A stretch of DNA of 64,000 bases from Escherichia coli (GTDB lineage: Bacteria > Pseudomonadota > Gammaproteobacteria > Enterobacterales > Enterobacteriaceae): assembly GCF_003334355.1 (NCBI RefSeq), contig NZ_QOWP01000003.1; one strand, 5' to 3'. Both the position numbers and the translations under genes were made by a program. Shown here piece by piece: positions 47,513-47,549 of the stretch (position 1 is its first letter; every line of letters begins with the position of its first letter). The notes beneath the pieces are model-generated. The model had not been told where the DNA came from and made no database searches. It saw only the letters and a program-made list of their open reading frames with translations.

Positions 47513-47549
47513 CTGGGTGTATATACAGTTATGCTGTGAGTATATACAG
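47513..47549. promoter_or_regulatory. Two tandem LexA boxes upstream of lexA (plus-strand CTGGGTGTATATACAG 47513-47528 and CTGTGAGTATATACAG 47534-47549)
   Basis: Both read CTGTATATAC(A/T)C(A/C)CAG on the coding strand; 5 bp apart; 9-45 bp upstream of lexA ATG. Confidence 0.9.

Follow-up and report, generated by a model that had tools for sequence, protein, structure and literature searches.

Tandem LexA operators upstream of lexA and a single shared operator between ssb and uvrA in an Escherichia coli chromosome segment

A stretch of Escherichia coli DNA that carries both lexA and the divergently transcribed ssb and uvrA genes raises the question of whether the palindromes in front of these genes are operators for the SOS repressor LexA and, if so, whether the regulatory wiring around them is that of the reference strain K-12. 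We analyzed a 64,000-nucleotide segment of the E. coli chromosome covering the lexA to uvrA region (hereafter the window), in which an earlier note, made from the sequence alone, had described two SOS boxes preceding lexA and one box shared by ssb and uvrA, and had called them textbook sites that confirm the identity of the locus and intact SOS wiring. The three sites are, in our judgment, almost certainly canonical E. coli LexA operators; they are already known and entirely ordinary, and nothing in the analysis contradicts the identification. The presence and significance of the sites, the identities of the genes, the overlap with promoter hexamers and the conservation were established here, while binding, repression and induction are taken from published work on K-12.

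On the plus strand, CTGGGTGTATATACAG occupies 47513-47528, TTATG 47529-47533 and CTGTGAGTATATACAG 47534-47549. Read on the minus strand, which is the lexA strand, the arrangement becomes CTGTATATACTCACAG-CATAA-CTGTATATACACCCAG, with the lexA ATG 8 nt further on at 47504. lexA, dinF and ssb are all on the minus strand of the window, a point left implicit in the earlier note, so boxes that precede lexA lie at higher coordinates. Both are 16-bp CTG-N10-CAG inverted repeats with an AT-rich centre, separated by a gap of 5 bp and spaced 21 bp centre to centre, and the claim of two 16-bp boxes 5 bp apart at 47513-47549 matches exactly, to the base. The promoter-distal operator has its core at 47534-47549 (20-mer 47532-47551, minus), the promoter-proximal or downstream operator at 47513-47528 (20-mer 47511-47530, minus), and the 5-bp CATAA spacer (minus) lies between them at 47529-47533. 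The box that had been placed at 30588-30607 in the ssb-uvrA divergent region is likewise present, in the 254-bp gap between the two genes, as the 20-mer TACTGTATATTCATTCAGGT with the core CTGTATATTCATTCAG at 30590-30605. The published SOS box consensus is TACTG(TA)5CAGTA (PMC6590174), and the third core also has the form CTG-N10-CAG with an AT-rich centre.

The significance of the sites was assessed with a symmetrised LexA position weight matrix built from 26 E. coli boxes known from the literature (the compilations of Lewis 1994 and Fernandez de Henestrosa 2000), the three tested sites being excluded. Among 63,981 positions in the window, the uvrA/ssb box ranked first (19.95 bits), the lexA proximal box second (18.66 bits) and the lexA distal box third (18.24 bits), and the fourth-best site scored 11.48 bits, about 7 bits below the three. 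All three fall inside the range of the training sites (12.2-27.0 bits, median 19.1). Exact score distributions give a chance expectation of 0.007-0.023 per site per 64 kb, and any site of at least 18 bits was contained in only 4 of 300 dinucleotide-preserving shuffles, compared to three such sites in the window. The earlier note had proposed a matrix scan of this kind as its check, with low scores counting against the sites; the scores are high and occupy ranks 1 to 3. A strict CTGT-N8-ACAG pattern matched one of the three boxes, because natural boxes are imperfect.

These figures bear directly on the possibility that the boxes are chance AT-rich palindromes, or ordinary promoter elements such as a TATA-like -10, rather than repressor sites. 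Such an origin would fit their AT-rich centres and their overlap with promoter hexamers, and the bare CTGT-N8-ACAG pattern is expected 0.5 times per 64 kb, but it does not fit scores of 18-20 bits under an independent matrix at three sites that all lie at known SOS genes. Nor does it fit the retention of the sites in every E. coli genome and of the lexA boxes across Gammaproteobacteria, or the direct mutational evidence (PMC7440846). The statistics and the published mutagenesis already rule it out, and its probability is negligible. Three further LexA-like sites, at 7708-7727 in the fdhF-yjcO gap, at 16839-16858 in the nrfA-acs divergent region and at 62357-62376 over the xylE start codon, scored 11.4-11.5 bits, below every training site, and are regarded as sub-threshold; 1.05-1.3 such sites are expected per window, and 3 were observed in addition to the true operators.

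The identity of the locus, which the earlier note took the boxes to confirm, was borne out by the proteins and by gene order. Proteins were identified with NCBIfam equivalog or subfamily models at curated cut-offs, all of which were exceeded: LexA by TIGR00498 (289.5 bits, cut-off 111), DinF by NF007690 (909 bits, cut-off 409), SSB by NF006533 (360 bits, cut-off 260) and UvrA by NF001503 (1629 bits, cut-off 1147). The first 50 kb of the window aligns collinearly and without indels to strain PSS-12 (NZ_AP027697.1), the two sequences differing by 12 mismatches (99.98% identity) in a base-by-base comparison covering window positions 1-50000, and lexA, dinF, dgkA, ssb and uvrA have the same coordinates in the annotation of PSS-12 by the Prokaryotic Genome Annotation Pipeline (PGAP). 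The lexA coding sequence spans 46896-47504 (minus), begins ATGAAAGCG and encodes a protein of 202 amino acids; downstream of it lies dinF, for a MATE transporter, at 45498-46823 (minus, PGAP start), and the divergent pair consists of ssb at 29900-30436 (minus) and uvrA at 30691-33513 (plus). No residue of the LexA protein in the window differs from K-12 NP_418467.1; the Ala84-Gly85 cleavage site and the catalytic residues Ser119 and Lys156 are all present. The two lexA boxes lie at the promoter of the gene for their cognate repressor, and that repressor is intact (TIGR00498, K-12 identity), as in a negative-autoregulation circuit.

We then mapped the boxes onto the promoters. A relaxed hexamer scan placed the lexA -10 (TATACT) at 47544-47539 and the -35 (TTCCAA) at 47567-47562, both on the minus strand and separated by a 17-nt spacer, such that the -10 lies inside the distal operator. 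Transcription would start at about 47531-47532, within the operator spacer, as judged from the position of the -10 and from the published +17 coordinate of the Dcm cytosine in the downstream lexA operator (PMC9210283), which agrees with the promoter map of the window. The proximal box would then span the first ~20 transcribed bases of lexA and so cover the early transcribed region. As is characteristic of LexA operators, the boxes overlap the core promoter or start region, namely the lexA -10, the lexA start and the uvrA -35 candidates.

Published experiments show what these two sites do. The lexA promoter carries two LexA operators (PMC9210283), and T-to-C mutations in the half-sites inactivate operators I and II (PMC7440846). 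The two operators at the start site contribute near-equal shares of lexA repression and together account for all of it, full repression by negative autoregulation requires both, and electrophoretic mobility shift assays of the lexA operators have been published on the identical K-12 sequence (PMC7440846). An extended Dcm site, CCCWGGG, at 47511-47517 overlaps the outer arm of the proximal operator; the site at the lexA operator is methylated only in stationary phase, with partial shielding by LexA, and Dcm methylation is without effect on LexA binding or lexA expression (PMC9210283). Upstream of the lexA -35, a weak CTG-N10-CAG match (CTGGTTTATTGTGCAG, 47575-47590, minus; 7.74 bits) was considered as a third LexA box and rejected: its score is at chance level, with ~7.6 such sites expected per 64 kb, and its CAG arm varies among enterobacteria. 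From its position, this match is probably the putative upstream operator III, which was found to be non-functional (PMC7440846).

The ssb-uvrA gap (30437-30690) holds exactly one operator, the second-best site scoring 5.1 bits compared to 19.95 bits for the box, which lies 83 nt from the uvrA ATG and 151 nt from the ssb ATG. On the plus strand, the relaxed scan gave a uvrA -10 candidate (CATAAT) at 30618-30623 and two -35 candidates (TATTCA and TTCATT) at 30595-30602, inside the operator, in agreement with the reported overlap of the LexA box with the uvrA -35 (PMC9505508). On the minus strand, a candidate distal, LexA-sensitive ssb promoter spans 30581-30610, with a -35 (TTGACC) at 30610-30605, an 18-nt spacer and a -10 (TGGAAT) at 30586-30581, so placed that the hexamers flank the box and the operator fills the spacer. 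We infer this promoter tentatively, because its -10 is weak and it received no scanner call; better proximal ssb promoter candidates were found by the relaxed scan at 30471-30514, clear of the box. According to published work, the single box controls both genes, its heterology index is 6.98, uvrA induction is few-fold, and of the three ssb promoters only the most distal is under LexA control (PMC9505508). The same shared ssb/uvrA box occurs in Salmonella (PMC8072944).

Whether ssb is meaningfully regulated by LexA at all is a fair question, since the box might effectively be an operator of uvrA only, its position with respect to ssb being incidental. The shorter distance to the uvrA ATG and the better ssb promoter candidates away from the box are consistent with this, as is the failure to detect ssb induction by radioimmunoassay, in some gene fusions and in three microarray studies (PMC9505508). 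Basal ssb expression is also the same in wild-type and lexA3 strains, i.e., independent of LexA (PMC9505508), which equally fits control of the distal promoter only, and the heterogeneity of ssb expression in Salmonella is LexA-independent under non-inducing conditions (PMC8072944). However, quantitative reverse-transcription PCR showed that ssb is induced in a LexA-dependent manner after ultraviolet and gamma irradiation, under strong induction, and that a constitutive-SOS mutant overexpresses it (PMC9505508), Salmonella ssb was induced 9.6-fold by nalidixic acid (PMC8072944), and the leftward TTGACC, a -35-like hexamer, abuts the box. We therefore consider a uvrA-only operator unlikely; the effect of LexA on ssb is modest and confined to the most distal of three promoters.

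Conservation was assessed within and beyond the species. The lexA-upstream and ssb-uvrA intergenic regions were each found in 5,426 of 5,426 complete E. coli genomes, with at least 99% identity in 5,348 records for the lexA region and 5,411 records for the ssb-uvrA region. In the most divergent E. coli copy of the ssb-uvrA region (91% identical), a block of ~60 bp with the box and its flanking hexamers is fully conserved and the substitutions lie on either side, and in the most divergent copy of the lexA-upstream region both 16-bp cores are unchanged.

Compared to K-12 MG1655, no base is changed in the two lexA boxes, the spacer between them, the -10 and -35 hexamers or the ribosome-binding region, and the LexA protein is the same. 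The 109-bp lexA intergenic region differs by one substitution, at its 11th base, which adjoins the dgkA stop and is distant from the operators, and nothing functional in it differs from K-12. The uvrA/ssb box likewise has the same 20-mer, flanks, divergent arrangement and position on the uvrA -35 as in K-12, and the only intergenic difference there is a T-run (an A-run on the plus strand) at ~30446-30453, just upstream of the ssb ribosome-binding site and ~140 bp from the box, with eight T in the window and seven in MG1655. With all three boxes identical to those of K-12 MG1655, which are reference examples of the LexA-operator family, the description of them as textbook sites was apt. The tabulated distances from 20-mer to ATG for Salmonella lexA, 6 and 27 nt (PMC8072944), are also the same in the window; numbering of the lexA boxes or operators varies between papers. 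More than one LexA box per promoter is found, as at lexA, at recN (three boxes) and at colicin genes (two overlapping boxes) (PMC7440846). The genes and spacings of those promoters differ from lexA, and in the case of lexA the regulated gene is the repressor itself, such that the circuit is autoregulatory, unlike that of recN or the colicin genes.

Across species, one genome per species was scanned for two CTGTNTAT-N5-CAG boxes 0-15 bp apart, which returned at least 120 loci. Of the 132 tandem-box matches listed, 72 are situated immediately in front of a LexA homologue and in its orientation; 39 cases, from Enterobacteriaceae and Pasteurellaceae, have an operator gap of 5 bp. Pseudomonadales, Oceanospirillales and other Gammaproteobacteria also carry two CTGT-type boxes immediately upstream of and co-oriented with lexA, and among the matches listed these are mostly 7-19 nt from the ATG, some further away, with gaps of mostly 3 bp rather than 5 bp. 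LexA homologues that are ~57-68% identical show, among the same matches, gaps of 3 bp (24), 4 bp (6), 0 bp (2) and 2 bp (1). When 36 distinct enterobacterial upstream regions were aligned, the -35 (GGTTCCAAAAT), the CATAA spacer and those box positions that the search pattern left free were invariant or almost so, and the sequence upstream of the -35 varied. Other tandem-box matches listed precede open reading frames resembling RecN, RecA, DnaE2/ImuC and ImuA/SulA-like proteins, as recognised by eye. About 25 of the matches listed, in which the boxes stand 2 bp apart, belong to tandem repeats of 18 bp, (CTGTTTATTCGCTCAGGG)n, that are unrelated to LexA.

The near-invariant 5-bp gap and CATAA spacer in 36 enterobacterial lineages would be expected if the two lexA boxes let two LexA dimers bind cooperatively to one face of the DNA and thereby gave a sharper autoregulatory switch than a pair of independent sites. 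The spacing of 21 bp centre to centre corresponds to two helical turns, and there have been repeated proposals of cooperativity (PMC5152588 and references in PMC7440846). In contrast, a promoter with only one operator but equivalent repression strength resembled wild type in induction, kinetics, dynamic range and fitness, and the same study found no sign of cooperativity between dimers (PMC7440846). The gap outside the enterobacteria, mostly 3 bp (24) and less often 0, 2 or 4 bp among the matches listed, would moreover alter the helical phasing, and this variability fits the absence of a strict phasing requirement. We therefore regard the cooperative explanation as improbable, even more so than the uvrA-only reading of the shared box: the tandem arrangement does not imply cooperative LexA binding. 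The variable gap (5 bp versus mostly 3 bp) argues that dosage or redundancy, and not phased cooperativity, may be what maintains the double operator, a point that may already be documented.

The earlier note also claimed that the tandem boxes autoregulate lexA together with dinF. Repression and autoregulation of lexA (PMC7440846) and co-transcription of dinF with lexA (PMC6590174) support this claim, and RNA polymerase occupancy across lexA-dinF rises on SOS induction (PMC3739934), but the part that concerns dinF is qualified by a strong terminator-like hairpin with a U-rich tail at 46846-46885 (minus), between the lexA stop (46896) and dinF. Among the papers searched, no LexA ChIP-chip study of uvrA and dinF turned up. 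The hairpin itself (46885-46856; AGACCGCGAUGCCGCCAGGCGUCGCGGUUU) has a 13-bp stem with 8 G-C pairs and a folding energy of -24.9 kcal/mol; the sequence downstream is GTTTTTCATC, with the tail GUUUUUCAUC, and the surrounding 91 nt have a folding z-score of -3.1. Both genes are on the same strand, and their spacing is 18 or 72 nt depending on the dinF start: the start annotated in K-12 corresponds to 46877, inside the hairpin stem, and the PGAP start lies 54 nt further, at 46823. The lexA-dinF junction contained no LexA-like site (best -7 bits) and no promoter call.

A stable hairpin was found 7-40 nt after the lexA stop in 35 of 35 distinct enterobacterial regions, with stem sequences that differ, and these hairpins have a mean of -19.6 kcal/mol compared to -9.7 kcal/mol for shuffles. 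In Escherichia the hairpin is followed by a good U-rich tail, and in many other genera the tail is poor. Our literature search for a lexA-dinF terminator yielded a figure of RNA polymerase occupancy and no description of such a structure, though one may exist in the original lexA sequence papers. This conserved intercistronic structure suggests either a partial terminator or a stabiliser of the mRNA 3' end. A hairpin conserved in structure and variable in sequence might attenuate or partly terminate transcription, or might stabilise the 3' end of the lexA mRNA; this is a tentative proposal that we would not favor at present. If true, the hairpin would determine the ratio of LexA to DinF, and induction of dinF would be contingent on read-through.

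Some limits apply to this reading of the three sites and their circuits. A strict scan for sigma-70 promoters and terminators gave no calls in the lexA-upstream or ssb-uvrA intergenic regions, and the promoter overlaps are accordingly drawn from relaxed hexamer matches together with the literature. The cross-species loci were selected by the two-box pattern; they document tandem boxes at lexA in many lineages but give no frequency for lexA genes without such boxes. Induction of ssb by the SOS response went undetected in several older studies and in microarrays and has been disputed for decades (PMC9505508). Finally, the hairpin may attenuate the co-regulation of dinF with lexA, and expression of dinF, given a terminator-like structure, probably depends on read-through.

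In the established SOS mechanism, as applied to these canonical operators, a LexA dimer would sit on each of the two adjacent 16-bp palindromes, one over the -10 and the other over the start and the early transcribed region. Occupancy of either operator would hinder RNA polymerase, such that LexA represses its own synthesis, and dinF downstream would be repressed too, by way of read-through. After DNA damage, RecA filaments on single-stranded DNA would trigger self-cleavage of LexA, emptying the operators and raising lexA-dinF transcription, and fresh LexA from the derepressed promoter would then reset the system; exclusion by LexA, RecA-triggered cleavage and resetting are reviewed in PMC6590174. 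The ssb-uvrA operator, of moderate affinity, would act on the uvrA -35 region and within the distal leftward ssb promoter, damping uvrA several-fold. Its effect on ssb would be confined to a minor fraction of the transcription, since the two promoters nearer to ssb are independent of LexA. The assertion of intact SOS wiring holds for the operators and for LexA, which are as in K-12 with cleavage and catalytic residues kept; recA lies outside the window, and the wiring as a whole can be judged only in part.

Other features of the window are unconnected with these operators. Rfam matches at gathering level were obtained for sraL (ryjA), an Hfq-binding small RNA, at 26495-26635 (plus) beside soxR, for the selenocysteine insertion element of fdhF at 5943-5997 (plus), and for five intergenic naRNA4/REP-type elements, all on the minus strand (8466-8536, 8579-8649, 19184-19255, 55224-55294 and 59452-59522). 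In the PGAP annotation of PSS-12, pseudogenes are recorded at the equivalents of 21485-22778 (yjcF, frameshift), 34435-35148 (aphA, internal stop), 43276-44297 (DUF2713-family, frameshift) and 52336-53915 (SopA-family, frameshift).

The window adds nothing new to SOS biology, and the published question of why lexA has two operators is not made more testable by it. Its value is that of a sanity check: the lexA-uvrA region is confirmed, and the SOS sites and the LexA protein are unaltered with respect to the reference strain.

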